This document shows, in pieces, positions 12,284 through 37,554 of a stretch of 64,000 nucleotides of DNA. The stretch covers positions 128,001 through 192,000 of IMG/VR virus record IMGVR_UViG_3300032053_000004; one strand, given 5' to 3'. The position numbers and the translations under genes are program-made. Every line of letters starts with the position of its first letter. The first letter of the stretch is position 1. This stretch comes from a virus. Lineage: Duplodnaviria; Caudoviricetes. The notes beneath the pieces are model-generated. The model was not told where the DNA came from and made no database searches. It worked only from the letters and a program-made list of their open reading frames with translations.

Positions 12284-12287
12284 CATA

Positions 12288-18873: not shown

Positions 18874-19299
18874 ATGAAGCCTTCTCAAGTCGCCATAGCT
18901 CTACGTCGTATCGCTGCCGGAATTCAGGCTTCAAAAAATCCTGACAAGAATCTAGTTGCTCGAGATCTAAAGAAAATTATATCTAAAATAGCAGGCATGA
19001 ATAATATGGATGGGATTAAGTGTTTAAAAGTTAATATTAGAGAACATAAACCGTTAACACGAGACACCCCTTACCCAGTTATCGATGGAGTTTTTCAATT
19101 TAGTACTCCAAACGGGCATATTATAGATTTTGATGGAAGATTTGATCCTAATGACGTTCGATTTGTTCTTCTTAAAGATGGGGAAGATGTTTCAGATCAA
19201 ATTGAGCCAGATGCATATAATATGGGTCCTGTTGATGAAAATTTAGAGGGTTTCGATCTTGAAGAAATTCTTGAGCATTGTATGAATTCTCAAGTTTAG
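18874..19299 (+). CDS. MKPSQ-leader protein 1 (40-aa shared leader + acidic payload)
   Basis: Leader shared with four other ORFs; unique D/E-rich C-terminus. Confidence 0.85.
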   Translation: MKPSQVAIALRRIAAGIQASKNPDKNLVARDLKKIISKIAGMNNMDGIKCLKVNIREHKPLTRDTPYPVIDGVFQFSTPNGHIIDFDGRFDPNDVRFVLLKDGEDVSDQIEPDAYNMGPVDENLEGFDLEEILEHCMNSQV

Positions 19300-19338
19300 A
19301 TTTTTTTTTTGATTTTTTTTTTTGATTTTTAATTTAAT

Positions 19339-19803
19339 ATGAAGCCTTCTCAAGTCGCCATAGCTCTACGTCGTATCGCTGTCGGAATTCAGGCTTCAAA
19401 GAAGCCTGACCGAAGGCTTGTAGTTCGAGATCTAAAGAAGATCATAGCTAAAGTGGCTCTTCTTGGCCTTCTCAAACCTTATTTGTTATTTACATCCCAC
19501 GCTGGAAGTGCAATATGGGAAATTTATGGACCAATTAATATCAACGATTTTAAGAACGCTGTGAAAAATTATAATTCAGATGATTCATCTACAGAACGTG
19601 GTTCAGACGGAACAGCATATTTTTTTGAAAATTCTGAGGATTTAATGAATAGATGGTCTGAAACTGGATTTGATTCAGTCGAATCCATTGATGACGCGTT
19701 AAATTCAGTTGAAAATCACGGTGACATGAGTTCTGACGAATCTATGAGAATGTTAACTGGTGAAATTGATGGTCTTACTGGAGTCGATTCTGAAGGCAAC
19801 TAG
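19339..19803 (+). CDS. MKPSQ-leader protein 2
   Basis: Same leader, unrelated acidic payload. Confidence 0.85.
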   Translation: MKPSQVAIALRRIAVGIQASKKPDRRLVVRDLKKIIAKVALLGLLKPYLLFTSHAGSAIWEIYGPININDFKNAVKNYNSDDSSTERGSDGTAYFFENSEDLMNRWSETGFDSVESIDDALNSVENHGDMSSDESMRMLTGEIDGLTGVDSEGN

Positions 19804-19832
19804 TATATAGATAAAGTTTTTTTTAAATTGGC

Positions 19833-19952
19833 GTGAAGCCTTCTCAAGTTTCTATGACTTGGGAAGTTAATTGCTCCCCCCGAAGTTTTATGGAGGACCC
19901 CGTAAAGTTACATATGATGAGATTGAAAGAAAGTATAGTCTTTAATGGATAA
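19833..19952 (+). pseudogene. Decayed MKPSQ-leader copy (39-aa ORF)
   Basis: GTGAAGCCTTCTCAAGTT (MKPSQV) matches the first 18 nt of the leader genes apart from the GTG start, follows a T-tract, then diverges. Confidence 0.55.
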
Positions 19953-20454
19953 TCTAGATTCTGAAGCTTTAGCTGAACGTTATATAAATAGAATGTATAT
20001 AGACCACCCGGCTGTTCGCTGGTGGGCACATCCTCGAATTTTAGTTGGTGGATCGATTAACAATTCTGATGATTTTGAAAATATGCAAAATAAATTCGGG
20101 GTTACATCAGTAATCTCCGTAGAATCCGAGCATTCGGATTCAGGCAAAGTTCCTGAAGCAATTTTATGTCATCTTCCAACACCAGATGATGGATCCGCAC
20201 CGTCTGTCCAGCATTGGAAGACACTGATAGATTTCGCCCAAGTCGCACTGAAAGACCCTTCTTCTAAGGTCTATGTCCATTGCCAGATGGGCGGTAGCCG
20301 TTCTCCGGCTGCAGCTTATGCTATCTTGCGGACTGTATTTAATTTCAGCCCGGAAGATGCCCTATCCAGTATCCAGCGTTTTAAAACTGAATATGGTGGG
20401 CATTGGTACCACCAAAATTATATTGGATCTGTTGAGACAGCTCTCACTTCTTGA
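19945..20454 (+). CDS. Dual-specificity/PTP-family protein phosphatase
   Basis: VYVHCQMGGSRS (HCx5R P-loop), ILVGG and LPTPDDGS general-acid loop. Confidence 0.9.
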   Translation: MDNLDSEALAERYINRMYIDHPAVRWWAHPRILVGGSINNSDDFENMQNKFGVTSVISVESEHSDSGKVPEAILCHLPTPDDGSAPSVQHWKTLIDFAQVALKDPSSKVYVHCQMGGSRSPAAAYAILRTVFNFSPEDALSSIQRFKTEYGGHWYHQNYIGSVETALTS

Positions 20455-21040
20455 TAGTATATAACCCCTTTTTCGGACTACTGAACAATCTCTTATGATT
20501 GTAGAAAGCAGAAGAAAGCATCTTCTTCCAGTCCTTAGCGGAAGATTTAAACCCTGAAGCTTTAAGCTCCTTTATAATTTCTTCTGCATTCATAGGATTT
20601 ACAGATTTGCTTAAAATCTTATGGATAAGGGTTTGAATCGGGGTTGAATTGATAATTCGACCGTTCGATAATTTTTTAAATGAATGCGCCGCGGCCCATG
20701 CCTGCTCGTAGATGGGGTTATCTGAAGATTTCTCTTCTTGCGGCGCAGTTTTCTTAGCAATTTTCTTAGTAATTTTCTTAGTAATTTTCTTAGCAGTTTT
20801 CTTAGCAGTTTTCGGTTTTTTCGATTCTTCTTGCTTTGTTCCGGACAAAGCAAGAATTTCTTCGGTTATTTTATTGAGTTCGGACTCCATAGACTGTCGC
20901 TTGGAAGATAGACTATGGAGTTTTAAATGTTTAGAATTTATTATCTCCTGGAGTTGTTGGATTGACATACTATCGATCTTGGATTTCTTCATTTCGAGTT
21001 TCTCCTGTTTGGGTTTCTCTGCTTTTGGCAGATTTACCAT
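20444..21040 (-). CDS. Nucleoid-associated-type DNA-binding protein (coiled coil + histone H1-like Lys repeats + winged helix)
   Basis: N-terminal heptads, (A/T)KKI/T repeats, and a C-terminal IHKILSK..PMNAEEIIKEL...F...KGLYTIK wHTH-like pattern. Confidence 0.65.
   Translation of the reverse strand: MVNLPKAEKPKQEKLEMKKSKIDSMSIQQLQEIINSKHLKLHSLSSKRQSMESELNKITEEILALSGTKQEESKKPKTAKKTAKKITKKITKKIAKKTAPQEEKSSDNPIYEQAWAAAHSFKKLSNGRIINSTPIQTLIHKILSKSVNPMNAEEIIKELKASGFKSSAKDWKKMLSSAFYNHKRLFSSPKKGLYTIKK
20749..20808 (-). repeat. 12-bp tandem repeat x5 (TTTTCTTAGYAR on the + strand)
   Basis: Encodes TAKK-ITKK-ITKK-IAKK-type repeats. Confidence 0.9.
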
Positions 21041-21084
21041 TTTACAATTGAAATAATAGGATTTTTTTTTTCTTTTAAGTTAAT

Positions 21085-21486
21085 ATGAAGCCTTCACAAG
21101 TTGCCATAGCCCTTCGTCGTATTGCTTCCGGAATTCAGGCTTCAAAGAATCCTGATAAGAGGCTCGTCGCGAGGGATTTAAAGAAAATTATTGCTGAAAT
21201 AGCAGGAATGGATATGGATGAACTTCCATTCAAAGGTGACTCGGAATTTGAAGAAGTGATGATTGGAATCATGTTTGATCAAGAAATTGGACTTGATAAC
21301 GCTATTAATAAAGCAAAAGAACTAATTGAAAGAGATGGGTTTAAAACTGGGAAATTTATGATCGACCATCATCGCCCTGGGACAATTGTTGGAAATATGG
21401 AAATTTCTCCCGGGTTTTATGATAAATTCTCTGATGGTTGGGAGTCAGAGGATGAAGGTGTAATTGTTACCCTGGAAGCTCCTTGA
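21085..21486 (+). CDS. MKPSQ-leader protein 3
   Basis: Same leader, unrelated acidic payload. Confidence 0.85.
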   Translation: MKPSQVAIALRRIASGIQASKNPDKRLVARDLKKIIAEIAGMDMDELPFKGDSEFEEVMIGIMFDQEIGLDNAINKAKELIERDGFKTGKFMIDHHRPGTIVGNMEISPGFYDKFSDGWESEDEGVIVTLEAP

Positions 21487-21537
21487 TCATAATATTGTGT
21501 TTGGTTAAATCGTTCATTAAAAATAAACATTGAACCT

Positions 21538-21969
21538 ATGGATATGAATAATATTGCCATTCGGGTAGCTTCCATGAATCTGGAAGCGGCGAAGAAGAAA
21601 AAGAAAAAACCGAAGAAGACCGGTTTAAAATCTAAAAAACCAGCTCGGGTCTCCCAACCTAGAATTTTGGAGTCTATTACGGCTCCTGAGACTGAATATT
21701 CGTGCCGGGCTGAAATATCTTTCAGTGTTGATTTTGAAGGAAATGTATCTAAAGACAAACTTACTCGGGCGCTTAAACGGGAAATAATGGCGTCCCTCGG
21801 TTCAGCCGTAACTTCCGTCTCAAGAAGTTTTCAGATTTCAGCTTCAAATGTTCTAGTGAAGCCGATTGCTTTTGAAATTGCTACTAGTGACCAATTCATG
21901 GTCGAAGATATGGACGAGCTTGGTGAAGCCGGGTCAGAAATTGATGACCCTAATTACGAAGATACATAA
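21538..21969 (+). CDS. Hypothetical protein, N-terminal IAxRVA motif and poly-Lys tract
   Basis: NNIAIRVAS, then KKKKKKPKK; acidic C-terminus. Confidence 0.65.
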   Translation: MDMNNIAIRVASMNLEAAKKKKKKPKKTGLKSKKPARVSQPRILESITAPETEYSCRAEISFSVDFEGNVSKDKLTRALKREIMASLGSAVTSVSRSFQISASNVLVKPIAFEIATSDQFMVEDMDELGEAGSEIDDPNYEDT

Positions 21970-21993
21970 ATTTTTTTTTAGATCATAACTAAT

Positions 21994-22431
21994 ATGAAGC
22001 CTTCACAAGTTGCTATAGCTCTTCGTCGTATTGCATCAGCTATTCAGGCTTCAAAAAATCCTGATAAGAATCTAGTTGCGAGGGATTTAAAGAAAATTAT
22101 ATCTAAAATAGCAGAAGGGCCTATTGATTGGGCTGACATCGAAAATACACTATTTAACGCTCTTAATAATTCAGATTCCGTTGAATCTGAAGTCTTTGAT
22201 GAAATAAGTGGATTAGATAATCTTAATCAACAGTATGGTCTTGTATTTTCACAAGTAATAGATCTTGATCAAAATATTGGTATTCAGGTTTCTTACGAAG
22301 GAGATTTTGATTTGGTTTGGTTCGGACCGATTTCTTCTTTTGATAAAACGGCAAAAGCAAAAGCAGCATCAGACGCTATTTTATCTGCTCAGAATTTCAG
22401 CTCGTTCCTCGAAGAAGATTTACTTCAATAA
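21994..22431 (+). CDS. MKPSQ-leader protein 4
   Basis: Same leader, unrelated acidic payload. Confidence 0.85.
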   Translation: MKPSQVAIALRRIASAIQASKNPDKNLVARDLKKIISKIAEGPIDWADIENTLFNALNNSDSVESEVFDEISGLDNLNQQYGLVFSQVIDLDQNIGIQVSYEGDFDLVWFGPISSFDKTAKAKAASDAILSAQNFSSFLEEDLLQ

Positions 22432-22437
22432 ATTCGC

Positions 22438-22773
22438 TTGGTAATGTTTGGGATGGACCAAGCTCCCAACGTTGTCAAAATTCAGCTCAAGCCTGAGACT
22501 CTAGACCAAATCGCCCGTTTGGATAGCGCAATTGCGCAACATTCGGTTGAACACAGCCAGATAGTTCTTCGAGCCCAGACACTGCTCATGGAGCTCGATG
22601 GTTTTTATGAGGCTAAAAAATCTACGGTTTTAGCGGCAACCAAAGAATCTGGACTCAATCCAGACATGGTTGTCCAAATGAAAATAAATCAGGATGGGTC
22701 AGCCCTTGTTCAGGTAAAGGCTCCTCAACATTCGGTTGAAGAACCGACTCCTCCGGCCCCAACCATACAATAA
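22438..22773 (+). CDS. Hypothetical coiled-coil protein
   Basis: ORF fills the gap between neighbours; start codon uncertain. Confidence 0.55.
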   Translation: MVMFGMDQAPNVVKIQLKPETLDQIARLDSAIAQHSVEHSQIVLRAQTLLMELDGFYEAKKSTVLAATKESGLNPDMVVQMKINQDGSALVQVKAPQHSVEEPTPPAPTIQ

Positions 22774-22799
22774 GTTGTTGATTCCCATCCTGTTATAGG

Positions 22800-24125
22800 A
22801 TGCCCGCACCTCCTGATCGATACCCTGAAATTCTAGAACAAATTTATCCGGCTATCCCGTTAGCGCCGTTGAACGTTCTAGCCTCTACGGGTTTCGAAAA
22901 AGGAGTCGTAGATATCCGCTGGACGAATCCGGCAGAAATTGCGGCTAATACCACATTTAATATTTTAGGGGTCAATGTTTATCGGAGTTTTGACTCGGCC
23001 TTTGGTCCATATTTTCGTTTAACCCAAGTTCCTATCGGGTCTACATTTTATAGAGATAGATCTGACATACGGATGGCGGTTCAAGAAAACGTATCCGATT
23101 CTTTCATTTTAAGAGGACCAACTTCAGACCCTAGTTCTCGATATGTATTTAGGACTATTCAACGTCCTATCCATTTAGACCAATTTCCGGGATTGTCTGA
23201 CTGGACGAATTTAAATGTCCAGGTCACTATTAATGGAAAAAAGTCATTTGTTGAAAAAATTGATTCAACCTTAGGGGAGGTTTCTTTAGGTATCTATCCA
23301 TCTTTTGATGTTGGTAATAAAGAACAAATTCAACCAGTTTTACCTACGAATCCAAGCGATGTTGTTCTCGCTACCTACAAATACGTAAAATCATTTGTTC
23401 CAACAGATTTAGCCCAAAGGATATTCTATCGTTTAACCACTGTCGCATATGATCCTGAATGCAATCAACTCATAGAAACTCCTCTTGATCGAGCTTCGCA
23501 AACGAACAATCAAGAAGTTGAGAAGCTCGATTGGATTTGGAAAGAAGCAGTGCGTCGTAATCGTTGGATTCTCCAAATGGGAGGAGAACGAGTCAAATTA
23601 TTTATTAGAAGAGTCGTAGGACCGAATTGTGGTTGTAACTCTTCCATATACAAACAACCTTCTTCTGATTGTGTTGTTTGTTATGGAACGGGGATTATTG
23701 GTGGATATTCTGGTCCTTATGATATAGTAATAGCTCCGGACGACGCGGACAAATCCATAAAACAAGCAAATCGTGGAAGAAATTTAGATCACTCGTACGA
23801 GACTTGGACTAGTCCGAGTCCTCTTCTTTCTCAAAGGGATTTTGTAGTTAAACTGAATGGCGATCGTTATGGGATAGGTCCTGTTCGAATGCCGACAAAT
23901 CGGGGTATGCAACTCCAACAATTTTTCACTATTTCTCACTTAGATGAACAAGATATTAGATATAAAATTCCAGTTCTTGATACGACAGTTCTTGTTTTTC
24001 CACAAACTCGTTATACTATTCCTGGAAAAGGTAACGCAACTCCGATGGTCACGGAGTCTCAACGGATCCCGGATGAACATGAGATTCGAGGGGCCACCGT
24101 TACATTCCAAAATACTCAGTACTAG
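22800..24125 (+). CDS. Probable neck/head-closure protein with N-terminal FN3-like domain and Cys4 zinc site
   Basis: VDIRWTNP...GVNVYRS (FN3-like). C-terminal CGC...SDCVVCYGTG pattern recalled from myovirus neck proteins. Confidence 0.55.
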   Translation: MPAPPDRYPEILEQIYPAIPLAPLNVLASTGFEKGVVDIRWTNPAEIAANTTFNILGVNVYRSFDSAFGPYFRLTQVPIGSTFYRDRSDIRMAVQENVSDSFILRGPTSDPSSRYVFRTIQRPIHLDQFPGLSDWTNLNVQVTINGKKSFVEKIDSTLGEVSLGIYPSFDVGNKEQIQPVLPTNPSDVVLATYKYVKSFVPTDLAQRIFYRLTTVAYDPECNQLIETPLDRASQTNNQEVEKLDWIWKEAVRRNRWILQMGGERVKLFIRRVVGPNCGCNSSIYKQPSSDCVVCYGTGIIGGYSGPYDIVIAPDDADKSIKQANRGRNLDHSYETWTSPSPLLSQRDFVVKLNGDRYGIGPVRMPTNRGMQLQQFFTISHLDEQDIRYKIPVLDTTVLVFPQTRYTIPGKGNATPMVTESQRIPDEHEIRGATVTFQNTQY

Positions 24126-24178
24126 TTCCTTTATTTAAATCGGAAAATTATCCTATCTCATGAGCGTCGTTAAGGGCG

Positions 24179-24841
24179 ATGAGTATGCAAAAGAAAAAAA
24201 ACGTAAATTATGCGACTCAATTAAATACGGTAGTCGATAGAATACTAGATAATATAGTAGATAATATAGCTAAAGATGGACTTGTTCTTTTAAAGAAAGT
24301 ATTAGATTCATCCGGTTTTGCGGATTCTGAGTATCTTAAAGATTATGAAGTATATGCTCATGTAACCGGACACTCCATAACTTTTGAAATTCTTCTCGAC
24401 ACATCAGCTATAGACGAAATTGAACAAGAAAAATCAGAAGAAGCAAAAGAAAAAGCTGAAAAAATAAAAGAAAAAAAGATTGAAAGAGCCTCTAGGTCTT
24501 ACGGGATTGTAAAAACCGGGCCAGCCAGAGTTCTTGGAGTTCGAGACGCTCGTTCTCCAGCTATAGACGCGCGGACGGATAATAGAAAGAATTCGAAAGA
24601 CCGATTAGTTGAACATGAGATAGCTTTAGTAGCTCCTCGTGGTCTTTCCGTAAAAAGGAATGGTAAAGTTTCTCTTAAATTAAAAAGAACAGCGAGAGAA
24701 ACTGATACTGAATTCATTTATCCTAAACGAGACCCTGAAGGAATAATAAAAGAGTTTCTTGATAAGTTAAGTGATATAACTAAGAAGAATTTTCTTCCAG
24801 AACTTGAAAAAGCGATATCTAAATATGCTTCTCAAAATTAA
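24179..24841 (+). CDS. Hypothetical protein, possible neck/tail-completion component
   Basis: Intact ORF within the neck gene cluster; no diagnostic motif recognised. Confidence 0.45.
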   Translation: MSMQKKKNVNYATQLNTVVDRILDNIVDNIAKDGLVLLKKVLDSSGFADSEYLKDYEVYAHVTGHSITFEILLDTSAIDEIEQEKSEEAKEKAEKIKEKKIERASRSYGIVKTGPARVLGVRDARSPAIDARTDNRKNSKDRLVEHEIALVAPRGLSVKRNGKVSLKLKRTARETDTEFIYPKRDPEGIIKEFLDKLSDITKKNFLPELEKAISKYASQN

Positions 24842-25385
24842 ATTGATAAATCAGATATCTTCAGATATAATTATTGAGGATATAGGAGTTAAATTGAGTG
24901 GGAAAGGTGATTCCCGTATAGTAGATTTTGACATTGCCTCAAAGTCTAAAGATTTGGTTCGTATGGCTGGAATAGTTAGACAAGAGCAAATTCCTGTGCT
25001 TAAAATTTGGCCATTCACATCCACCCCGGATATTCCGGTTCCAAAATCTATAATTCCCCCTCAAAAGCCGAACCCCGTCAAAATCATAATTCACGATGAT
25101 CAATCAAAAGCCATTTCAGAACTTTCTTCAAAAATGGATATGATTCTTCAAATGCTTTCGGAAAAATCTAATACTCCGACAACTATCGTAAATCAAATAA
25201 TGCCTTCATCTGGACAGATTGCTCAGTCTCCGATGAAAAAATCGGATGATCCGGTATTCATACCTAGTAAGATAGTCCCGGATGGAGTTGAATCAAATAT
25301 GAATATTAAATCTAATGAAATTCAGAAAGAAGATATTGAAGATGTGAGTAGAAAACTTGGTTCTTTGTTAAGATCTAAGAAGTAA
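24825..25385 (+). CDS. Hypothetical protein
   Basis: ORF overlapping the upstream stop; Pro-rich linker. ATG at 24825 preferred. Confidence 0.55.
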   Translation: MLLKIKLINQISSDIIIEDIGVKLSGKGDSRIVDFDIASKSKDLVRMAGIVRQEQIPVLKIWPFTSTPDIPVPKSIIPPQKPNPVKIIIHDDQSKAISELSSKMDMILQMLSEKSNTPTTIVNQIMPSSGQIAQSPMKKSDDPVFIPSKIVPDGVESNMNIKSNEIQKEDIEDVSRKLGSLLRSKK

Positions 25386-25397: not shown

Positions 25398-26426
25398 ATG
25401 GCTAGGAAAGAAACACATATGGAAAAGTCTGAAATCGTTCCAGGTTGCTCTATAGACGTTGGCACCATGAACTTGGTGGCCGCTCGTCGATCTGGGAAAA
25501 AAGTATCCACTAATCGAATTCGAAATGCTTTTATAGATTTAGAACCTGATAAGAAGAGAATGCTTAAGTTGAGTAACACGAGTTTCGTAGAACTCGGGGA
25601 TCGTCTTTTAGTCTTGGGCGACGAAGCTTTAGAAACCGCTAATTTGTTTAATCGTGAAGCTCGCCGCCCAATGTCTGGAGGATTGATGGCTTCAGGAGAA
25701 CTTGATTCTCAACAAATTATCAGTTTGATGATGAAAAAAATATTAGGAGATCCTACAGTCCCTAATGAAAAATGTGCTTATTCAGTCCCTGCCCCGGCTG
25801 TTGATGTTAATGATTCTGATATCACATATCATAAAGCAGTTTTAAAGAAAATTTTGACTGAGCTTGGATACGATGCCATAGATGTTAATGAAGCTTTAGC
25901 CATCATATTTTCAGAGTGTGGTAATGAAAATTTTTCTGGCCTTGGGATAAGCTATGGTTCTGGTATGACTAATGTTTGTCTTGCCTATAACGCCATGAGT
26001 GCCATGGAGTTCTCTTTAGGGAGAGGCGGGGATTACATAGATCGTGGAGCCGCTAAAGCTGTTGGCACTACAGCTGCTCGAATTTGTTCTATTAAAGAAG
26101 GTAAGTCTAAATCTGTAGACATAACTAAACCTGAAACTCGGGAAGAAGAAGCTATAGCTTTGTTCGTTCAAACTCTCATAGATTATACTATAGATAATAT
26201 CATTACTCATTTTCATAATGTAAAAAGTGAGCTTTTCATACCGAAACCAGTTCCTATAATAGTTTCCGGCGGGACTTCATTGGCTAATGGATTTTTGGAG
26301 AAATTTAAGGAACGATTTAAACTTCATTCAGGAAAGTTCCCGTTTCAAGTTTCAGATATAAGGGCTGCTGCTGACCCTATGACAGCTGTGTCTACCGGAC
26401 TGTTATTATTGAGTCAGATGGATTGA
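25398..26426 (+). CDS. Actin-fold (MreB/FtsA/ParM-like) ATPase
   Basis: Phosphate-1 IDVGTMN, connect-1 NEALA, phosphate-2 SYGSGMTN, GGDYID, adenosine motif IVSGGTS, connect-2 DPMTAVSTG. Confidence 0.82.
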   Translation: MARKETHMEKSEIVPGCSIDVGTMNLVAARRSGKKVSTNRIRNAFIDLEPDKKRMLKLSNTSFVELGDRLLVLGDEALETANLFNREARRPMSGGLMASGELDSQQIISLMMKKILGDPTVPNEKCAYSVPAPAVDVNDSDITYHKAVLKKILTELGYDAIDVNEALAIIFSECGNENFSGLGISYGSGMTNVCLAYNAMSAMEFSLGRGGDYIDRGAAKAVGTTAARICSIKEGKSKSVDITKPETREEEAIALFVQTLIDYTIDNIITHFHNVKSELFIPKPVPIIVSGGTSLANGFLEKFKERFKLHSGKFPFQVSDIRAAADPMTAVSTGLLLLSQMD

Positions 26427-28586: not shown

Positions 28587-31500
28587 ATGGGAATCGGACC
28601 TTTCACCACATACGCACCTCCTGGAGTTTACACGAGCACCTTAGTTGAACCGGCCGTCGGTCAACTTTTAGGTGGTCTTCGTATACCTGTACTAATTGGC
28701 ACAGGCCAAGAATCTATGTCTCAGGACAATTATGAAATTGTCCGTGGGTCTAGCAGCGTATCCGATACTCCGATCTTCGGAGAAGACGTCGCTGCCCGCT
28801 GGGTTGTTAGTGGTACTAACACCAACCCGGTCCTTGGTAACCAAACCGGGGATCTTTTCAAGTTCCGAGTTCGGAACTATCCGATCGTAGATGGGACTGG
28901 CATCGGGCGGACTGCCTTTGACGCTAACCGCGTTGCAGTTTCTGTCAATGGCCAACCTGTATCTGTTTCTGGTGTTGATGGCACTAACGGCATCGTCTCT
29001 CTTTTAATTGCTCCTGAGCCTACTGATATTGTTACAGTTAATTATTATTTCCACCGTAAAGATACCAGAATCACCGATGACGTCTCGATTCAGGTGACGC
29101 TCGGATCTGCCGTTCTGATTGTTCCGAGAGTAGAGACATATGTCATAGTTACTGGTGTTAACGACACATTAATCGTTAATGTCAATGATTCGGCCAGTTC
29201 TTCGACGATCGTTTTCCCGGCGGCTACATATACCGCTGCTTCAGCGGCTAATGCTATTAATATAGCGGCCATTCCGGGTCTCACAGCCTCGGTCCATGTT
29301 GATAATCAGGCCTTGAATCACGTTCAGCTCGTTGCTCAAGGAAACGTTCTGATTGGTTCAGGAAACGCCAACGGAACCTTCGGACTCAATCCGGGCGCAT
29401 ATACGAATAGAAATCGTAGTTTCCGAGTATTCAACGGTCCGATCGTTGACGGGTCTGATGGTGGCATTACGACCACTGATCCTTCGAAGGTCGTGGTTAT
29501 GGTTAATGGCACTCAGGTTCTCGCTTCGGCGGTGGACGGTGCCAATCGTTTAGTGACTCTTTCGTCTGCTCCTTTTAATGCAGCGATAGTTACTATTCAA
29601 TACTACTTCAACACATACCAAGATACTTTCGATTATCTCCCGAATTCAAATATCGTTTCGACCGGGAATGTCGGCATATCCCCTGGCCGTCGGGACTATC
29701 TGAACGGCCCCGATTTCATCGTCATAAACCAAGGCGATCAGTCCATAATTCAGTGGGGTACCGCCTTCCAGGTTCAGCCGGGAACGAGAACCGGAACCAC
29801 GTTTTTCGATGGAACCCAAGTTCTTGGGTTACTTGTCGATGATCGCATATTTGCGATAGAGTGTGCTCGATTTACTAATCCGACTACAAATTCGATCGAG
29901 ACGAATGTTTGGACGCTTCCGCTCCAGCCTACGACCGGAAATGGGCGTGATACGCCTCTTTCAACTTCTGTATTCAATGCCATAACGAATGGCAGAATTG
30001 ATCTTCCAACCGATCAGCCTGAACTGGTTACTGCTTATGTTGGAAAAACGGTCCGCGACGCTCTCGGGCGTCCTCCGGTCACCGTTCTTGCGGTTGATTC
30101 TGTGACCAATAATATAACTCTTAAAGATCCGGTTCCAGCGGATTATAGAGTTTACGCAACATTCTGGTACAATCGTATTCAGGATGACACTTATACCCTG
30201 ACGGTCATCAACGCTGGTTCTACTGGTGTTGGTACGTATAACGTCGCATCCCAAGCTCAGGGTCGTAATCTTCTGAGTATGAGATTCGGAACGAAGACGG
30301 CTCTTCCCCAATCGGTTAATTTCCCGAGTGGTTCAGAACTCAATCCCGACGCGATTCAATTCGGTGGGAACCCGGTTTCTGAAACTGCGACTATTACTTT
30401 CACGTTGCAACCGGCGACTCACGCTTCGTTCACCAATGCGAACGCGGAGCCGTACGATCTGTTTGCCCCAGGGTCGAACATTTTCGGGAGCGTCATTATT
30501 GACGGTGTTCCGATCAGCGTGAACATGTCTACGGCTTATCCGGCAACTCTCGCCGGTCAGCCGGTGTTTACTCCGGCAACTCTCGTTTTCGCGGCGACGG
30601 ATCGTCTCGTTCTTGAAGTTGATGGTGTTTCGCTCAGCCCAATCGATGTGAGCGCTCTCACTACGCTCTCGGCTGTTGCGAACTCGGTCAATGAACAGAC
30701 TGTTATCGATCTCGCAAATGAGCTGAAGGCGGATTATAACTCTCATATTGCATCTACGACATATCATCTTGCAGCGGACGTCGCTAACCCGGTTACATCT
30801 CCTGATGCAACCTCACTTGCATCTGCTATTACTCTCATAAACGAGATGCAGGGTGACTACAACGCCCACAGAGTCAGCGTAGTTTTCCATCCAAACGCTG
30901 ATATAATTAACGTATCGGCGGCGGCTGCAGCTGTCGATCTTCCGACTGCCGTCACACTCGCTAATGAACTGAAGACCGTATTTAACTCTCATCGCGTTCA
31001 GTTCAATACAACGAACGGAAACGTTCATGTTATTGATGATACAGTGAACGTTGTTTCCACTCCCAATTCTGGTGGAGTGGCAACAGTTATCACTTACGGA
31101 ACCGAACAGGTTCTGGGTCTTCAGAGCACGAAGACTCCAGCAGCAGCACCTTCTGGATTGAATGATCTTTCTAGAACCAAGGTTTTGATCCCGGTTCTTT
31201 CGGGCCAAACTGACGCGGCGTCTAAAATCGGCCTCCAGTCCAATTTGGAAGCCACTGGGTCTTACAACTCGATCAATCAGCCTGGATTCCAAGTTAGTGG
31301 AAACGCCGGACCATTCAATATTTCAGCATCGGTTACTGATCAGTTTAGGTTCAATATTGACGGAACTGATTTTACTTCAATTCTTCCGTCAGGATCAACG
31401 ACTTCAACTACAGCAGTCGCCAACGCCATCAACGGAACCATAGCTTCAGCGGCCGACATAGCAACCGCTACAGCTACGCTCGTTACTCTTGCAAACGATA

Positions 31501-33632
31501 TCAAGACTCAGTTTAACCTTCACATACCGTCTGTTGTTTTCCACACGATTGCTGACGTCGTTAATACCATAACGTCTCCTGCTGCAACAGATCTCACGAC
31601 GTCCATAACGCTTTTGAATGAAGCAAGACTGCGCCATAACGCTCATCGGGTTACTGGCGCTTTCCATCCAGCTCCGGATACGATAAACGCTGTTCTTGCG
31701 TCTAACGCAACGAATCTTGGAACAGCGATTACTCTCGCCAATGAGATTAAGGCTGAGTTTAATCGTCATCGGCTTCAGACTATCGGTGCTGTCAATGTTC
31801 ACGTGGCTGATGACGCCGTAAACGTTGTTGCGGCAGTGGATGTGCTTTTTGCAAATCCTGCGGCCTTCGCAGGAACGTTGACCGGTCAGTATGCAGGTAA
31901 GCTCCTCCTCCGTTCCTTCGTCAATACTGTTCAGTCGGTTGTGACTACTCAGGACGGAACGGCAAACTCAGTTCTTGGATTCTCGAGTTTTGTAGACGCT
32001 TTCCGTGACCAGCCTACGGCTTCGGATATCGCGTCGGCTTTGGATGCGAATACGACATTCTTCGGAGCAGTACCGGTTCTCCCTGCGGTTCTTCGGACTA
32101 GTTCCAAGAGCATTGCATGGGCGATATCCGTAGCTGGTCTTGGAATGTTCCTCCAGATTAACTCGGATACTGCCGGTTCGACGTCAACGATTTCGTTTGC
32201 TTCTGTTGCAAACACGGCGTTCATTCCGGATACTGGGATCGGAATTACTCCAGGAATCTCCGGAGATACTGGAGAAGCCACTCACTCGGGCTTCACGGTC
32301 ACTTCGTCGGACTTGATTAACGGTTCTAGTGGAACTGGTTTCCCAGGCCAGACTTACACGGACGCCCGTACCGGTCTTCGATTCACCATTCTTCCTGCTA
32401 CGAGCGGAGATTACGCGATCGGTGGGAGTTTCACTCTCCTCATAGGATCGACTTTCACCTGCGACGCGTCAATTCCGACTCGCCAAGTTCCGGGTATTGA
32501 GACTACGGTTCTGAATACGAACGGTATGGCCGCTGGTACTACGGCGTTCTTGTCCACATACCTCAGGACTGGCAATGAGCCTAGGAACGGGGATGTTTAC
32601 TACATCTCATATCAGTTCGCGAAGACTGATATTTCTACGGCTCTTTTCCGGGATCTCAAGAGGATTCAACAGAACTTCGGACCTCCGACGCCTGAATTCC
32701 CTCTGAGTTTGGCTGCTCGTTTGGCTCTTTTGAACGGTGCCGTTCTCGTTGGAATTCGTCAGGTTCTTCGGGCTCCGAATTCTTCCCAGGCTTCTCTGCA
32801 ATCATATGTCGAAGCGATTGATGATCAGCAGAAACCGATTGCTGGGAACATTAAACCGGATGTGATTACTCCTCTCACGTCTGACCCCCAGGTATTTGCT
32901 TACCTGAACCAACACTGTGCTTTCATGGGTTCACCTCGTCAAGAAGGTGAGCGTATCGGAGTTGTTGGTGTTGCGGTTGGAACCAACCCTCTCGGGGTTC
33001 AAGCTATCGCTAAGGGCTTGGCTTCTGAGCTCATGATTGTGGTTTATCCTGATTCATACGTGGTTACAATCACGGATACGGCGTCAGGTGGAAACCTCGA
33101 TCTTTTGATTGATGGGACTTATTGTGCTGCGGCCTTGGCCGGAACGGCATGCGCTCCTTCAATCGACGTGGCTACTCCTTGGACTCGTAGACAAATCCAA
33201 GGGCTCAAGCGCGTGGGTCGTATTCTTGATCCAACGGATGCCAACCAGACGGCTGTTGCTGGTGTTACCGTCATTGAGCAAGTTGAGTCGGGTCTTCGGG
33301 TTCGTCACGGTCTCACGACAAACCTGGCCTCAGTCATTACGCGTACTCCTTCTGTCATATTGACCATTCAATATGTTCAACAGACCATGCGTAAGGTCCT
33401 GGATCCGTTCATCGGCCAGAAGTTCAATGGTCAAATTCTCAAGTCAATTGAGAGTGCCATGGTCGGAGCTTTCTCGACTCTGATCGATAATCAGATCGTG
33501 GCCAAGGTTTCGGGCATATCGGCAACTGTCGATGATCAGGATCCGACGATTGCTCGAACGGAAGCCATTTACGTTCCTGTCTTCCCGCTAGAATATATAG
33601 TATCTATACTTTCTATTCGTATTAGATTATAA
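28587..33632 (+). CDS. Contractile tail sheath protein, 1681 aa, with many inserted domains
   Basis: N-terminal YAPPGVYT. C-terminal sheath core (VRHGLTT, TPSVILTIQYV..MRKVLDPFIG, YVPVFPLEYI). Confidence 0.93.
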   Translation: MGIGPFTTYAPPGVYTSTLVEPAVGQLLGGLRIPVLIGTGQESMSQDNYEIVRGSSSVSDTPIFGEDVAARWVVSGTNTNPVLGNQTGDLFKFRVRNYPIVDGTGIGRTAFDANRVAVSVNGQPVSVSGVDGTNGIVSLLIAPEPTDIVTVNYYFHRKDTRITDDVSIQVTLGSAVLIVPRVETYVIVTGVNDTLIVNVNDSASSSTIVFPAATYTAASAANAINIAAIPGLTASVHVDNQALNHVQLVAQGNVLIGSGNANGTFGLNPGAYTNRNRSFRVFNGPIVDGSDGGITTTDPSKVVVMVNGTQVLASAVDGANRLVTLSSAPFNAAIVTIQYYFNTYQDTFDYLPNSNIVSTGNVGISPGRRDYLNGPDFIVINQGDQSIIQWGTAFQVQPGTRTGTTFFDGTQVLGLLVDDRIFAIECARFTNPTTNSIETNVWTLPLQPTTGNGRDTPLSTSVFNAITNGRIDLPTDQPELVTAYVGKTVRDALGRPPVTVLAVDSVTNNITLKDPVPADYRVYATFWYNRIQDDTYTLTVINAGSTGVGTYNVASQAQGRNLLSMRFGTKTALPQSVNFPSGSELNPDAIQFGGNPVSETATITFTLQPATHASFTNANAEPYDLFAPGSNIFGSVIIDGVPISVNMSTAYPATLAGQPVFTPATLVFAATDRLVLEVDGVSLSPIDVSALTTLSAVANSVNEQTVIDLANELKADYNSHIASTTYHLAADVANPVTSPDATSLASAITLINEMQGDYNAHRVSVVFHPNADIINVSAAAAAVDLPTAVTLANELKTVFNSHRVQFNTTNGNVHVIDDTVNVVSTPNSGGVATVITYGTEQVLGLQSTKTPAAAPSGLNDLSRTKVLIPVLSGQTDAASKIGLQSNLEATGSYNSINQPGFQVSGNAGPFNISASVTDQFRFNIDGTDFTSILPSGSTTSTTAVANAINGTIASAADIATATATLVTLANDIKTQFNLHIPSVVFHTIADVVNTITSPAATDLTTSITLLNEARLRHNAHRVTGAFHPAPDTINAVLASNATNLGTAITLANEIKAEFNRHRLQTIGAVNVHVADDAVNVVAAVDVLFANPAAFAGTLTGQYAGKLLLRSFVNTVQSVVTTQDGTANSVLGFSSFVDAFRDQPTASDIASALDANTTFFGAVPVLPAVLRTSSKSIAWAISVAGLGMFLQINSDTAGSTSTISFASVANTAFIPDTGIGITPGISGDTGEATHSGFTVTSSDLINGSSGTGFPGQTYTDARTGLRFTILPATSGDYAIGGSFTLLIGSTFTCDASIPTRQVPGIETTVLNTNGMAAGTTAFLSTYLRTGNEPRNGDVYYISYQFAKTDISTALFRDLKRIQQNFGPPTPEFPLSLAARLALLNGAVLVGIRQVLRAPNSSQASLQSYVEAIDDQQKPIAGNIKPDVITPLTSDPQVFAYLNQHCAFMGSPRQEGERIGVVGVAVGTNPLGVQAIAKGLASELMIVVYPDSYVVTITDTASGGNLDLLIDGTYCAAALAGTACAPSIDVATPWTRRQIQGLKRVGRILDPTDANQTAVAGVTVIEQVESGLRVRHGLTTNLASVITRTPSVILTIQYVQQTMRKVLDPFIGQKFNGQILKSIESAMVGAFSTLIDNQIVAKVSGISATVDDQDPTIARTEAIYVPVFPLEYIVSILSIRIRL
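30711..31829 (+). repeat. Two modules (30711-31055, 31488-31829), each with three ~41-aa His-His-Asp repeats
   Basis: Consensus L-x-N-[ED]-x4-[YFH]-N-x-H-x(6-11)-H-x3-D-x2-N in all six copies. Confidence 0.9.
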
Positions 33633-33652
33633 ACGTTTGTTCAGTATTCAAT

Positions 33653-33691
33653 ATTGGAAGACATCCGAATTTAATCCGGATGTCTTCCAAT
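33653..33691 (+). terminator. Terminator after sheath gene
   Basis: 15-bp perfect inverted repeat ATTGGAAGACATCCG/CGGATGTCTTCCAAT with a 9-nt loop. Confidence 0.75.
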
Positions 33692-33764
33692 TGAATTCTT
33701 ATTAGTTCAATATTTCCCGCTTGGAGGACCATCTGTGTTTGGTTTTTAGTTAATTTATATTAAT

Positions 33765-34100
33765 ATGAAGCCTTCTCAGATCGCTCAAGCTTTAAATCAT
33801 ATTGCTTCTAAAATTCAGGCTTCAAAGAATCCTGATAAAAATCTAGTTGCGAGGGATTTAAAGAAAATTATTGCTCAAATTGACGAAGATGGCTCTATGA
33901 CTGAAGACGACTTCATTAAAATGATTGAGAAACATTTGCCAGAATTAAAAGAATGTATGGGAAAAGGGACTTCTGAAGAAAATCAAGAATTAGAAAAATA
34001 TATGAAAAAACATTTAGGTTTGGATAATTGGGATGAAATAATATCCAGAGCAGGAAAAGTTCTGAAAACCATGATTAACTGGGTTGAATCAAAGAAATAG
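33765..34100 (+). CDS. MKPSQ-leader protein 5
   Basis: MKPSQIAQALNHIASKIQASKNPDKNLVARDLKKIIAQI leader, with a helical payload. Confidence 0.85.
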   Translation: MKPSQIAQALNHIASKIQASKNPDKNLVARDLKKIIAQIDEDGSMTEDDFIKMIEKHLPELKECMGKGTSEENQELEKYMKKHLGLDNWDEIISRAGKVLKTMINWVESKK

Positions 34101-34101
34101 T

Positions 34102-34416
34102 TTAGTTTAAAAGTTCAGAGGAAATTTCTCTAAAAATTTTACTTACATTAGTTTGATTAAACTCAAGAGTTTTCTCAGAAAACATTGGAGATATCAGTGT
34201 TATGTTTGGTTCCTTTTCATCGAGCCAAACTCTAACCGAAATAGGGCTTTGAAAGTTTCCTATTTGAACTCCTCCTTTAGCTAAGTATATATTATCGCTT
34301 TGGATTTCTTTCAAATCTATAAAAGGAAAGCTTTCTGTCATTTCTTTAAGATCATCGGATAATTTCATCCGATAGAATTTTGAAATTATCTTGGACCATT
34401 TTAAATCATACTTCAT
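34102..34416 (-). CDS. Hypothetical protein
   Basis: Fills the intergenic space; transcribed divergently from the AAA gene. Confidence 0.6.
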   Translation of the reverse strand: MKYDLKWSKIISKFYRMKLSDDLKEMTESFPFIDLKEIQSDNIYLAKGGVQIGNFQSPISVRVWLDEKEPNITLISPMFSEKTLEFNQTNVSKIFREISSELLN

Positions 34417-34473
34417 ATACTCTTATACATGATAAGGTTTCAAATTTTCGGCTCTTAGTGGTATGATATTTAT

Positions 34474-36000
34474 ATGAGCGGTTCTACCCGTAAGGCTATC
34501 AATCAGGTGTCTAAAGATCCTGGTTTTTCTATAGTCAAGTCTACTCGTGAGGCTTCCTATTTACCTGCTCTCCAAGACCCTGATTATCAAATAAACCCAC
34601 AAATTGCTGGGATTATAAATTACACATTAGATAGTTTCTTTTCAAAGCAAGACGAACGGAATCGTTTTTATAATCAAAATCTCCCAAATATACCGGCTGA
34701 TCCTTCCGCAGCCTTGAAAGAGGCTTGGCTTGGATGTGAAATTCATAAATGTGTTCGTATTCATCAAGCTTATCCTCCCTTTTTAAGAAATTTACATGCT
34801 TGGGCTTTTTCCAAGATGTTTGAAGGTGGGAAATATGAAATCATCCCGGTTCTAGATACATATGAATGGAAAGATTTCATTAAAGGGAACGCTGAATTTA
34901 AAATAGAACTTTCTCAGTTAAATATTGATTTTGGGAACGCCATAACGCTTCCTGTCCACGGTCTTTTCTTTGTTTTAAACAAGACAAATAGTACTCATTT
35001 ATTAGTCAATTTTGATTTTTGTTTTTATGATCCGACTTGTTCTATCTCAGTTAATTCTTCGCCTGAGAATAAAGCTGATGCAGAACAATTTCTTCGAGAT
35101 TTTGAAACTTCTGTTCTTCAAAATGATATATACTACAAGAAGTGTTTATCATACAATCGGGGGACTCTTGATTTCATACAAATCACACCAACATCTTGGT
35201 CAGACATAATTTTAAAGCAAGAAATTATAGATTCAATCCATAATAATACGGTCGGAGTTTTAGAAAATATAGACGCGCTTCAAAGTGTAGGTATGTGCCC
35301 CAACCGAAATATTATTCTAATATCTCCGCCAGGAATGGCAAAAACTACCATTTTCCGTGCAACTGCTATGGAAGCAGTTGGTAAATTTACTTGTATTTGG
35401 TGCACCGGAAAATCAATAAGTTATCCGGAAGATGTTACTTCACTTTTTCAGGCAGCTAGGACTCTGGCTCCATGCATAATTTTTATTGAAGATATGGATT
35501 TATTTGGACGAACTCGAGGAGATTTACATGGTCAAGAGAGCCATGTTCTAAACGAATTCTTAGCCTGTCTTGATGGTGTTCAAGAAAATATGGGTGTTGT
35601 CGTCATGGCTTCTACCAATGATATTAATTCTATGGACGAAGCTCTCATAAATCGCCCTGGGCGATTTGATGTTAAAATAGAAATACCTTTGCCCGACGAA
35701 AACGACCGGGCTCGCATGCTTTCTGAATTTTTAAAGAAATTTCATGCAAAGCCAGATAAATCGATTACTAATGAAGCATGGACTAATGCTATTAGAATGA
35801 CTGATGGTTTGACCGGCGCATATATGAAAGATCTGGCAAAATCTGTAGTTATACGATCAGTGGCTGCTGGTCGGTGCCAGAATAATTCCATCCAATTTAG
35901 TTCAGATGATCTCATAGGGTCAGCTGAACAAATACTGAAGAACTTCTCAATAGGTAAAAAAGCCGTTTATGGGGATGGGTCAGACAACTCTAATCAATAG
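34474..36000 (+). CDS. AAA+ ATPase (classical clade-like, single AAA module, no protease domain)
   Basis: Walker A SPPGMAKT, Walker B IIFIEDMD, sensor ASTN, second region of homology DEALINRPGRFD. Confidence 0.92.
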   Translation: MSGSTRKAINQVSKDPGFSIVKSTREASYLPALQDPDYQINPQIAGIINYTLDSFFSKQDERNRFYNQNLPNIPADPSAALKEAWLGCEIHKCVRIHQAYPPFLRNLHAWAFSKMFEGGKYEIIPVLDTYEWKDFIKGNAEFKIELSQLNIDFGNAITLPVHGLFFVLNKTNSTHLLVNFDFCFYDPTCSISVNSSPENKADAEQFLRDFETSVLQNDIYYKKCLSYNRGTLDFIQITPTSWSDIILKQEIIDSIHNNTVGVLENIDALQSVGMCPNRNIILISPPGMAKTTIFRATAMEAVGKFTCIWCTGKSISYPEDVTSLFQAARTLAPCIIFIEDMDLFGRTRGDLHGQESHVLNEFLACLDGVQENMGVVVMASTNDINSMDEALINRPGRFDVKIEIPLPDENDRARMLSEFLKKFHAKPDKSITNEAWTNAIRMTDGLTGAYMKDLAKSVVIRSVAAGRCQNNSIQFSSDDLIGSAEQILKNFSIGKKAVYGDGSDNSNQ

Positions 36001-36039
36001 ACCCTTCATAAAACTTAACTAGAGAGGACTGAAGAACCA

Positions 36040-36552
36040 ATGAACCATAGCGAAGTTGTTAGCCGTCTGGTTGATCTTTCTGGCCGTCTTGCGGGCATGG
36101 ACCCTCAGGATGATGCGGTTCAAAGGACCATTCAGGGCCTTCAGGCCAACGCGGAGCTTCTCCGAAGCAAGGCTGCGGACGCCCAACCGGGGGGTTTTCC
36201 TAAAGATTCTATGAAGAACGATATTGACTTTATAAGTCAACAGATCTCCCGCCTCAAAGCAGCGGCTATGGTTCCCGCTTCCAATTGGCGTCGAGTTCTT
36301 TCAATCCTCGAAGGTCTAAATAACGCCGCTGTCGCAGCTTCTCGTCCCGCCAACGCTGCACTCCGTCCTAAGATTGCTAACATAGTTACGAAGGTTGCTG
36401 GCGTTTTTGCAGAAGTTGATACGGTTGAAGATCTCGACAAGCCTCTTGAGACTATTGAGAAGGCCGTCCACGGTCTCTATGGTGATCAATCAGCCAATAA
36501 GACATACTATTTTGATCGTCGCGGAAAAGGTCATCACTCAGAACCTACGTGA
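36040..36552 (+). CDS. Hypothetical helical protein (possible internal head/scaffold-type)
   Basis: SD GAGAGGA; helical sequence containing RLA, KIA and KVA motifs like those of the leader family. Confidence 0.6.
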   Translation: MNHSEVVSRLVDLSGRLAGMDPQDDAVQRTIQGLQANAELLRSKAADAQPGGFPKDSMKNDIDFISQQISRLKAAAMVPASNWRRVLSILEGLNNAAVAASRPANAALRPKIANIVTKVAGVFAEVDTVEDLDKPLETIEKAVHGLYGDQSANKTYYFDRRGKGHHSEPT

Positions 36553-36558
36553 TGGTAT

Positions 36559-37554
36559 ATGTTGTTTCTAAAACGGGCTTCTAAAAGATTTTCTTATCCA
36601 AAAGGTTGGAAAAAAGATATATCTAAACCAAAGACATATACTAAACCTGAAATACCTAAACAGATCATTAGATATTTTATTCGGTCAGATTTAAATTCTT
36701 CGAAGATCCAAGAAACTATGGATCTTTTAAATGGAAATTTAAAAGATGAATTAAATGAAGTGCTACGCCAAAAATTTGGCGATAGTTGTCAAGTTATGAA
36801 TTGGGGTAAAGATGGTTTTGGCATAGAATGTAAAAGTAAACGCAAAGAATGTAAAGATTTCATTCAATTTATAGCAGACAAATTTATTAAAAAAGGATCT
36901 TCAGATTTACAAAAACTTCTTACTAATACTGAAGAAATTTCCAAAAAACGGAAATATAATGGAACACCTAGATTTTCTCCTCTAGATGAAAATCCTATGG
37001 AAGAAAAAATTTCTTCCATAGCATCACGAATAGCTCAAAATCCAAAGCTTTCTCCAGGTGTTGCCTTTCATCTTGATGAAGATGGGACTTGGAAAGCTAA
37101 ACCAGTTCCTCCTGAAGTTCGAAGAGAAGCTGAATATAGCGGAACACTAACTATTTATGGTTATAAATCAGTGGTGTTTGAAACTCCCAATGGACAATCT
37201 TGGGCGCAGAGACTTGATTTGAGTTCTGAATCTGAAGAAAAAGAACCAGAGGAAGAACCCGAAGAACAAGAGTCTGAACCTGAGCCGGATGAGCCAGAAG
37301 AATCTGAGCCAGAAGAATCTGAGCCAGAAGAATCTGAGCCAGAAGAATCTGAGCCAGAAGAATCTGAGCCAGAACCCGAGTCCGAAGACGGGCTTGAGCC
37401 TGAAGAAGAATCTGAGTCGGAAGAAGCAACCCAGTTATCTTTCACTTTAAAGAAATTATCTTCCGAGGTTTTTGCTTCTAAAAATCCAAATCCAGAGTTA
37501 ATTTCTCGTGATTTGAGAAAAATCATTTCGATACTTTTAACCAAAAAAAGATAA
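36559..37554 (+). CDS. Protein with acidic EPEES linker and C-terminal copy of the MKPSQ module
   Basis: 37432-37539 QLSFTLKKLSSEVFASKNPNPELISRDLRKIISILL aligns ungapped to leader positions 5-40. Internal SIASRIAQ motif. Confidence 0.8.
   Translation: MLFLKRASKRFSYPKGWKKDISKPKTYTKPEIPKQIIRYFIRSDLNSSKIQETMDLLNGNLKDELNEVLRQKFGDSCQVMNWGKDGFGIECKSKRKECKDFIQFIADKFIKKGSSDLQKLLTNTEEISKKRKYNGTPRFSPLDENPMEEKISSIASRIAQNPKLSPGVAFHLDEDGTWKAKPVPPEVRREAEYSGTLTIYGYKSVVFETPNGQSWAQRLDLSSESEEKEPEEEPEEQESEPEPDEPEESEPEESEPEESEPEESEPEESEPEPESEDGLEPEEESESEEATQLSFTLKKLSSEVFASKNPNPELISRDLRKIISILLTKKR
37291..37374 (+). repeat. 15-bp perfect tandem repeat GAGCCAGAAGAATCT x5.6
   Basis: Read directly from the sequence; encodes EPEES. 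Confidence 0.95.

Follow-up and report, generated by a model that had tools for sequence, protein, structure and literature searches.

The window analysed here, a stretch of 64,000 nucleotides, comprises bases 128001-192000 of a 202,143-bp IMG/VR virus record (G000), whose CheckV completeness of 47% points to a phage of roughly 400 kb that was detected in at least 24 sediment metagenome runs. Five open reading frames (ORFs) of the window, at 18874, 19339, 21085, 21994 and 33765, begin with the same 40 amino acids, following the pattern MKPSQ[VI]A..AL..IA..IQASK.PD..LV.RDLKKII, and continue into different small payloads. A sixth copy of this 40-residue module, referred to as leader where it stands N-terminally, closes ORF 36559. 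The module-bearing genes and the parts of ORF 36559 are the following:

18874-19299, + strand: cassette 1, 141 aa, leader at 18874-18993, acidic 101-aa payload, net charge -13
19339-19803, + strand: cassette 2, 154 aa, leader and acidic 114-aa payload, net charge -16
21085-21486, + strand: cassette 3, 133 aa, leader and acidic 93-aa payload, net charge -14
21994-22431, + strand: cassette 4, 145 aa, leader at 21994-22113, acidic 105-aa payload, net charge -17
33765-34100, + strand: cassette 5, 111 aa, leader and 71-aa payload, net charge -4
36559-37554, + strand: ORF 36559, 331 aa, bearing the C-terminal module (residues 290-325, nt 37426-37533)
37009-37056, + strand: IASRIA stretch of ORF 36559, weakly similar to leader helix 1, ISSIASRIAQNPKLSP
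37051-37209, + strand: conserved domain of ORF 36559, SPGVAFHL..GY.SVFET..WAQ
37222-37425, + strand: acidic EPEES-type linker of ORF 36559, 68 residues, directly ahead of the C-terminal module

The common start of the five ORFs, noticed in an original prediction made from this sequence, agrees with these coordinates and with the leader identities, the other N-terminal copies of the window being 76-93% identical to the leader of ORF 18874. With that leader as query the C-terminal module behind the EPEES linker, likewise predicted, was recovered as well (E=8e-7, 43% identity). Past the leader the likeness ends abruptly: over the leader the copies have nucleotide identities of 0.72-0.88, directly past codon 40 of 0.22-0.33, and the payloads of the window are mutually unrelated, as had been proposed, with a best pairwise BLASTP match of E=0.013 (composition-based statistics and SEG switched off).

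The 202-kb record as a whole holds eleven copies of the module (E 8e-22 to 8e-7, far above chance), ten at the N-termini of proteins of 111-166 aa and one C-terminal. A profile was built from these 11 modules and compared with 1.84 billion cluster representatives (clusters at 50% identity), a metagenome search that the original prediction had suggested; it matched 705 clusters at E<=1e-3 and 145 at E<=1e-10, all of metagenome origin. Nearly all of these matches represent residues 1-40 of proteins with 90-200 aa. The assumption that the module can be used at either protein end held among the 156 family proteins examined, where it was placed N-terminally in 144, C-terminally in 11 and internally in 17 cases, 16 proteins possessing two modules. 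Metagenome loci with the module range in guanine-cytosine (GC) content from 0.34 to 0.63. Related IMG/VR records are G001, a 183-kb fragment with several module matches, and G002, which is complete with 393 kb and terminal repeats. No match to the module was found in the deposited phage genomes (50,697 records), in 185,579 bacterial and archaeal genomes or in BFVD. In Pfam, two chance hits excepted, none of the 11 modules matched a family even with the cut-off relaxed to E<=10, and the best match of the profile among PDB sequences had E=0.19, to designed coiled coils matching helix 1, none being significant; the earlier statement that the motif belongs to no named family is therefore upheld for both collections. 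The module represents a large unnamed family confined to an uncultivated lineage of huge phages.

Across 125 diverse members all positions from 1 to 37 are conserved except 8, 9, 16, 19 and 26. A14, S20 and P23 are invariant, M1, P3, L10, I13, I17, L27, V28 and D31 are retained in at least 96%, and information content drops sharply past position 39. The conserved positions comprise hydrophobic ones of a/d type as well as most of the polar surface ones, and the leader is basic, with a median net charge of +5 (+5 to +7 per 40 residues). For the N-terminal copies of G000, ten in number, the Nei-Gojobori method gave mean proportions of synonymous (pS) and nonsynonymous (pN) differences of 0.60 and 0.22, respectively; in the closest copies dN/dS amounted to 0.03-0.36 at dS of 0.26-1.8, synonymous sites being near saturation. 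Since synonymous sites are nearly saturated and the peptide is held, the peptide rather than the DNA is maintained, as had been suspected from the synonymous differences, and most of the paralogs are old.

In structural models the module is predicted to be a self-contained antiparallel two-helix hairpin, with an S-K-N-P-D turn joining the helices. For ORF 21994 AlphaFold2 (132-sequence alignment) returned a mean predicted local distance difference test (pLDDT) of 79.5, the leader forming helices at residues 3-19 and 25-40 and the payload folding into an alpha/beta unit; a double-module protein was modelled as four helices (pLDDT 80, predicted template modelling score 0.60). The folded helix-turn-helix docking unit of the original prediction is thus consistent with two models, both at a pLDDT of about 80. 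Foldseek searches of PDB with the double-module model, and of VIA wide and BFVD with the ORF 21994 model, retrieved generic helical hairpins only. For the payload of ORF 21994 these searches gave sub-threshold matches to type III secretion system chaperones and YkuJ at Z about 5, so that no fold was assigned, and the ESM Atlas held no usable match for ORF 18874. Co-folding of leader residues 1-45 as a homodimer scored 0.03, which counts neither for nor against pairing. A Tat or Sec signal peptide was rejected for the leader, the hydrophobic core being absent and the RR pair (positions 11-12) not conserved.

Payload diversity is not restricted to the window. By BLAST, 98 distinct groups can be told apart among the payloads of 125 family members, 80 groups having a single member, and Pfam analysis of 132 full-length members yielded nothing except LRV/HEAT repeats in two. 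A payload-only homology search with cassette 1 retrieved leader-bearing relatives only. What the payloads have in common is their charge: the net values of -13, -16, -14 and -17 in the window, with -4 for ORF 33765, confirm the four strongly acidic payloads reported before, and an acidic payload is a rule of the whole family (n=125, median -9, 82% at -5 or below, none at +3 or above). Other ORFs of 70-180 aa in the two phages have a median net charge of 0 (Mann-Whitney P=3e-44 versus payloads), this control set being the output of a crude ORF caller that includes some spurious frames.

The first four cassettes lie in an array together with an upstream element, a remnant and three further genes:

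18845-18873, + strand: upstream T-run/TTAAT element of the form AAATTTTTTTTTGATTTTAA.TTAATATG, common to the copies at 18874, 19339, 21085 and 21994 and to the genome copy at 85010
19810-19850, + strand: remains of a decayed cassette, with a T-run ahead of GTG-AAG-CCT-TCT-CAA-GTT (VKPSQV, 19833-19850) and divergent afterwards
19945-20454, + strand: accessory dual-specificity phosphatase (Pfam DSPc, E=9.1e-9, above the curated cut-off), with no G002 homolog at this place
20444-21040, - strand: accessory Lys-rich protein (weak Pfam HARE-HTH match, E=0.0011, below cut-off), with no G002 homolog
21538-21969, + strand: conserved backbone gene with a short N-terminal tag, MDMNNIAIRVAS; its G002 homolog (h195066-195326, 44% identity) starts with MANLLAIAERVAAR

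In G002 only the homologs of ORF 21538 and of ORF 22438 lie between those of the 299-aa (17838-18737) and the 441-aa (22800-24125) genes. As the four cassettes, the DSPc phosphatase and the Lys-rich helix-turn-helix (HTH) gene are missing there, the array of the window is an insertion island in a conserved backbone. Cassette 5 is situated between a gene for a 1681-aa protein and an AAA ATPase gene, where G002 has other genes, and relatives possess leader genes at still other sites, between terminase-region genes in L056 and, in L054, within the head cluster immediately ahead of the protease gene. The flanking genes of strain L043 are 99-100% identical and cassette 1 is absent from it; its remaining gene starts like ORF 18874, in the upstream region and the first codons, and continues as ORF 19339, and this hybrid leader indicates a crossover inside the leader. 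In a contig from run X2 the depth over the cassette 1 payload was 0.84 versus about 70 in the flanks. Metagenome variants include P0010 (cassette 2 leader with cassette 1 payload), the mosaic P0004 and P0007, a form of cassette 2 with an internal deletion. Contigs break at leader copies because these are repeats; loose contig ends, mostly same-genome paralogs, were excluded from allelic swaps. Cassettes are gained and lost through recombination within leader DNA. About 30 nt of T-rich upstream sequence co-travel with the most similar leader copies, and in a crude gene set a T-run of at least six plus TAAT ahead of the start codon was found in leader genes only. Matches to sigma-70-type promoters stay at chance level (21 versus 19.2 +/- 4.5), and terminator-like sites are mildly enriched (12 versus 5.0 +/- 2.8) and do not flank each cassette. 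Among the sequencing runs listed for this uncultivated phage no RNA run appeared, nor was a proteome found.

Downstream of cassette 5, ORF 36559 is preceded by two conserved genes:

34474-36000, + strand: AAA+ ATPase, Cdc48/VCP D2-like (Pfam AAA, PF00004, E=2.7e-23), a candidate partner only
36040-36552, + strand: conserved 170-aa protein between the AAA ATPase and ORF 36559, with 56%-identity homologs at the same position in G002 and L055

The best PDB relatives of the ATPase are VCP-like ATPases and p97 (E about 1e-48); it is 54-56% identical in G002 and 50% in L055, and its downstream neighbours are the same. The order AAA ATPase, 170-aa protein and module-bearing protein in G000 has its counterpart in G002 and L055. 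The counterpart of ORF 36559 in the GC-rich L055 ends with the module too, and that of G002 (554 aa) displays four TVASRVA-type helices in place of it. Embedded in this AAA-adjacent G002 protein is a counterpart of the cassette 1 payload with 32% identity. As a whole the 554-aa protein (L011:8139-9803, - strand; G002 174138-175802) appears as a string of domains, each with a TVASRVA-type helix ahead of it.

A second, short N-terminal tag of the form M..[LF].[RK]IA[SA]R[VI]A, borne by proteins that are otherwise unrelated, occurs nine times in G000 (0.12 expected) and 14 times in G002 (0.30 expected), strongly enriched at N-termini with P about 1e-5. Its sites include 21538-21576 in the window, 33907, 34627, 35302, 71225 and 86758 in G000, 8168 and 8917 in L055, and 40304, 88765, 107450, 178485, 195066 and 320157 in G002. 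Carriers include backbone morphogenesis and head-cluster proteins, kinase-like and GNAT-like proteins and ORF 21538, as well as a ferritin-like protein of 164 aa in G002 (L019:8765-9259, - strand; G002 88765-89259; Pfam Ferritin E=3e-11), which starts with MIPPKLVRIASRVAAV. Several short tags have a phi-x-E sequence within a few residues downstream, and for a 416-aa short-tag protein the ESM Atlas offered a poor model only. A relationship of the short tag, an RRIASxI lookalike, to leader helix 1 was not supported by profile comparison: the probability in hhalign was 8%, and helix 2, not helix 1, was the part to which the tag aligned. A likeness to helix 1, seen in a BLAST and hidden Markov model alignment of the G002 counterpart (PPQVAVA--NIASRV / PSQVA..LRRIAS), may serve as a lead. 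Another shared peptide belongs to about 30 small proteins of G000 (2321-51606 and 109370-110514), whose common C-terminus consists of an acidic helix and phi-phi-[DE]-[SAGC] at the very end (e.g., EVLES, EVVDS, EVVEG, DVLDC); no leader-bearing protein has it.

Among the head genes of G000 the large terminase (92419) and portal (94985-96799) were identified by sequence and position only, the head maturation protease (102029-103552) by phrog_18299 (E=2.7e-10) and the major head protein (105824-106708), which is 91% identical in G002, by phrog_2522 (E=6e-47); an acidic, Gln-rich protein at 103673-104911 is the probable scaffold. Near the copies of the window, weak PHROG matches to virion and tail-fibre proteins were obtained. 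In the region 102029-104911 the protease and the neighbouring probable scaffold both display ASVRFAE directly ahead of long acidic or Gln-rich low-complexity tracts, and this peptide could be a shared self-processing or co-assembly site.

Some further features of the record stand apart from the module. GC content is strongly heterogeneous, with 0.50-0.62 in window 1-6400 and in G000 0-36 kb and 120-134 kb versus 0.33-0.40 elsewhere, and the GC-rich part of the window codes for Ala/Thr/Gly-rich fibre-like proteins. An operon at 6425-14932 (+ strand), adjoining virion genes and kept in G002, comprises a GT2-TPR-GT4 fusion, a methyltransferase, glycosyltransferase-like genes and a B12-binding radical SAM enzyme. 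Two large proteins at 40293-42056 (- strand) and 43083-44873 (+ strand), without homologs in G002, match REase_MTES_1575 below the curated cut-off, the latter also possessing treble-clef zinc fingers (DUF4379) and a Mom-like domain (E=4e-7).

Taken together, a folded portable module under strong peptide-level selection, with hypervariable acidic payloads and recombining accessory cassettes, is well supported. To explain it, we propose that the hairpin serves as a common docking or address domain, nearly always fused at residue 1 of fast-changing small acidic payloads, and that it may be gripped by one conserved, probably phage-encoded partner. The destination would most likely be the assembling head or virion, the payloads travelling with the DNA into the next cell according to the logic of T4 internal proteins, and the hairpin would more likely be retained than cleaved off; accessory cassettes would be swapped, duplicated and deleted by homologous recombination in leader DNA, with selection holding the peptide constant. 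As a whole, virion destination included, this best explanation is advanced tentatively and falls somewhat short of an even chance. Docking on one conserved partner is, taken by itself, fairly probable, because conservation covers all faces of the hairpin across divergent phages, the module is restricted to phages and it is used at either protein end. Virion loading is the most likely single destination, itself rather doubtful, and is favoured because of the parallel to T4 internal proteins, the strain turnover reminiscent of an arms race and the presence of several copies in morphogenesis blocks.

Several observations weigh against a loading of the payloads into the virion. Four proteins (P0021, P0026, P0031, P0051) consist of module, Pro/Ala linker and module and carry no cargo, and copies at the C-terminus or inside proteins exist in the family. 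G002, though complete at 393 kb, possesses three module copies only. Half of the G000 copies lie among small accessory, not structural, genes, and an ortholog of ORF 21994 (P0002, 50% identity) is located in a non-structural neighbourhood, beside genes for an Acb1-like phosphodiesterase and a RuvB-like protein. No conserved cleavage site follows the leader: positions 40-46 hold less than 1 bit each and no recurrent Glu-containing motif. Neither the T4-type protease PF03420 (Peptidase_S77) nor the Gp23-type capsid PF07068 gave a hit in G000, G001 or G002, and the control genomes gave none either. Finally, cargo this acidic would presumably pack poorly with DNA. A cleavable tag of T4 type is hard to reconcile with the missing cleavage motif, the cargo-free tandems, the C-terminal and internal copies and the many non-structural neighbourhoods; a packaged protein would probably keep its hairpin.

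Instead of being packaged, payloads might be docked by the hairpin on a conserved intracellular hub of the phage, for which the Cdc48-like AAA+ ATPase with its two neighbours or a volactin-type filament are candidates. This is unlikely, although the order of AAA ATPase, 170-aa protein and module protein is kept in the three divergent relatives G000, G002 and L055, the AAA domain belongs to the Cdc48/VCP D2-like, substrate-handling clade, and the cassette 1 payload recurs in the AAA-adjacent 554-aa protein of G002. Many leader genes are, moreover, found in accessory, early-looking neighbourhoods, and a volactin homolog is present at 25398-26426. In Photorhabdus virulence cassettes (PVCs), the AAA ATPase Pvc15 recognises N-terminal leaders of payloads (PMC9054023). 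However, the kept order in a morphogenesis block may reflect core synteny alone, and the Pvc15 route itself loads particles and hence overlaps partly with virion loading. The volactin homolog (+ strand), an actin-fold protein of the morphogenesis block, is supported by Pfam Volactin at E=9e-72 and 72% identical in G002.

A role of the hairpin in general oligomerisation, by pairing into a four-helix bundle with no third partner, is also improbable. A 40-residue hairpin with hydrophobic residues in a/d-type spacing (V6, L10, I13, I17 and V28, L32, I35, I39) and the additional conserved small or hydrophobic residues A7, A14, L27 and L36 would hardly be stable alone; of the module-linker-module proteins one was modelled as four helices, and the sole PDB sequence matches to helix 1, non-significant at E>=0.19, were the designed coiled coils. 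A generic dimeriser should drift, yet the polar surface (K2, S4, Q5, R11, R12, S20, K21, N22, D24, R25, R30, D31, K33 and K34) is conserved across very different GC contents. Ten near-identical leaders in one cell would furthermore cross-pair indiscriminately, and the uniform acidity of the payloads would be left unexplained. RIIa/Dpy-30 dimerisation-docking domains are built of some 40 residues as helix-loop-helix, with proline in the turn; two of them make up a four-helix bundle, and they bind to an amphipathic helix. For the module there is no match to these families in Pfam at E<=10, and they are absent from its structural matches; the resemblance is a lead only.

A bolder proposal joins both peptides: the hairpin on swappable acidic effectors and the short M..L.[RK]IA[SA]R[VI]A helix on conserved enzymes and head-cluster proteins would be two related labels of one addressing system, read by the conserved Cdc48-like AAA+ ATPase and an adaptor, which would load dozens of different proteins into the particle for co-injection; we consider this distinctly improbable. 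Very unlikely is a binding of the basic hairpin to nucleic acid or another polyanion, with the acidic payload as DNA mimic or autoinhibitory tail; the charges (leader +5 to +7, payload median -9) and the position of the ORF 36559 module directly behind an extremely acidic linker would suit it, but no DNA- or RNA-binding family was matched in Pfam at E<=10, the helices of about 16-17 residues are unlike a classical HTH, and many non-basic positions are conserved, beyond the needs of charge-driven binding. That the shared sequence is kept for DNA reasons only, as a recombination or translation-initiation cassette with a functionless peptide, has a negligible chance: leader DNA does act as crossover site and the short upstream element co-duplicates with the closest copies, but the codon analysis (pS 0.60 versus pN 0.22, dN/dS down to 0.03) refutes it as sole explanation, and the peptide is conserved at GC 0.34-0.63 as well as in C-terminal and internal copies without a start codon.

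Variable cargo behind a common leader is known already from the T4 capsid-targeting sequence (CTS), from propeptides of giant phages and from PVC leaders. The T4 CTS, some 10 residues long, is cut off by gp21 at a phi-x-E site. T4 internal proteins are diverse anti-restriction proteins which share only this capsid-targeting sequence; they enter the head together with the DNA and counter the defences of the host (PMC3012670). Like IPI, IPII, IPIII and Alt, the cassettes combine one conserved N-terminal address with unrelated, fast-evolving small proteins at strain-plastic loci. Unlike the T4 CTS, the module is a predicted folded hairpin of 40 residues without a conserved cleavage site, occurs in C-terminal and tandem copies and lacks sequence similarity to it, and the payloads are acidic whereas T4 internal proteins are basic. 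In the phages SPN3US, phiKZ and 201phi2-1, head and ejection proteins start with propeptides of 20-254 residues, which are believed to direct them into the prohead (PMC10052503). These are giant phages as well, with many internal head proteins, some of them paralogous; however, their propeptides are cleaved at a protease motif that is well defined, and unrelated proteins do not have one such module in common. The present phage is unrelated to the SPN3US/phiKZ/201phi2-1 group: tblastn searches with cassette 4 (leader and payload) and with the 486-aa protein at 38227-39687 retrieved no match among the 50,697 phage records.

PVCs and other extracellular contractile injection systems (eCIS) possess a leader of about 50 residues at the N-terminus of diverse payloads, recognised with help of Pvc15, an AAA ATPase of the structural locus (PMC9054023). 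The shared N-terminal leader on unrelated payloads recurs here as an analogy, not a homology, and a PF00004 AAA ATPase lies in the morphogenesis region, syntenic with a module-bearing protein, its likeness to Pvc15 being the shared AAA fold. In contrast to eCIS, a complete phage with a head and not a tailocin-like particle is concerned. Encapsulin cargo-loading peptides and microcompartment encapsulation peptides are short amphipathic helices that dock unrelated enzymes inside a shell, which in encapsulins has the HK97 fold. The ferritin-like G002 protein with its short KIASRVA-type N-terminal tag recalls the ferritin-like cargo of encapsulins, whereas the 40-aa hairpin is larger than such short single helices. 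New here is a module unrelated to these and longer, a predicted folded hairpin used at either end under a strict acidic-payload rule.

As an address label, the hairpin would unite hundreds of small, acidic and otherwise unrelated proteins of huge phages in one functional class, plausibly of host-takeover or anti-defence effectors, with a sequence handle for metagenome mining. The T4 internal-protein principle would then be extended to a structurally different, folded and reusable module, and a portable tag of 40 residues with a defined partner would be at hand for directing foreign proteins to a phage structure; should two-label addressing prove true, it would represent a phage-borne modular platform for effector delivery. 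Regardless of the destination, the rule of basic hairpin and acidic payload, the purifying selection on the leader and the turnover of cassettes by recombination inside it are solid features of megaphage genome organisation.

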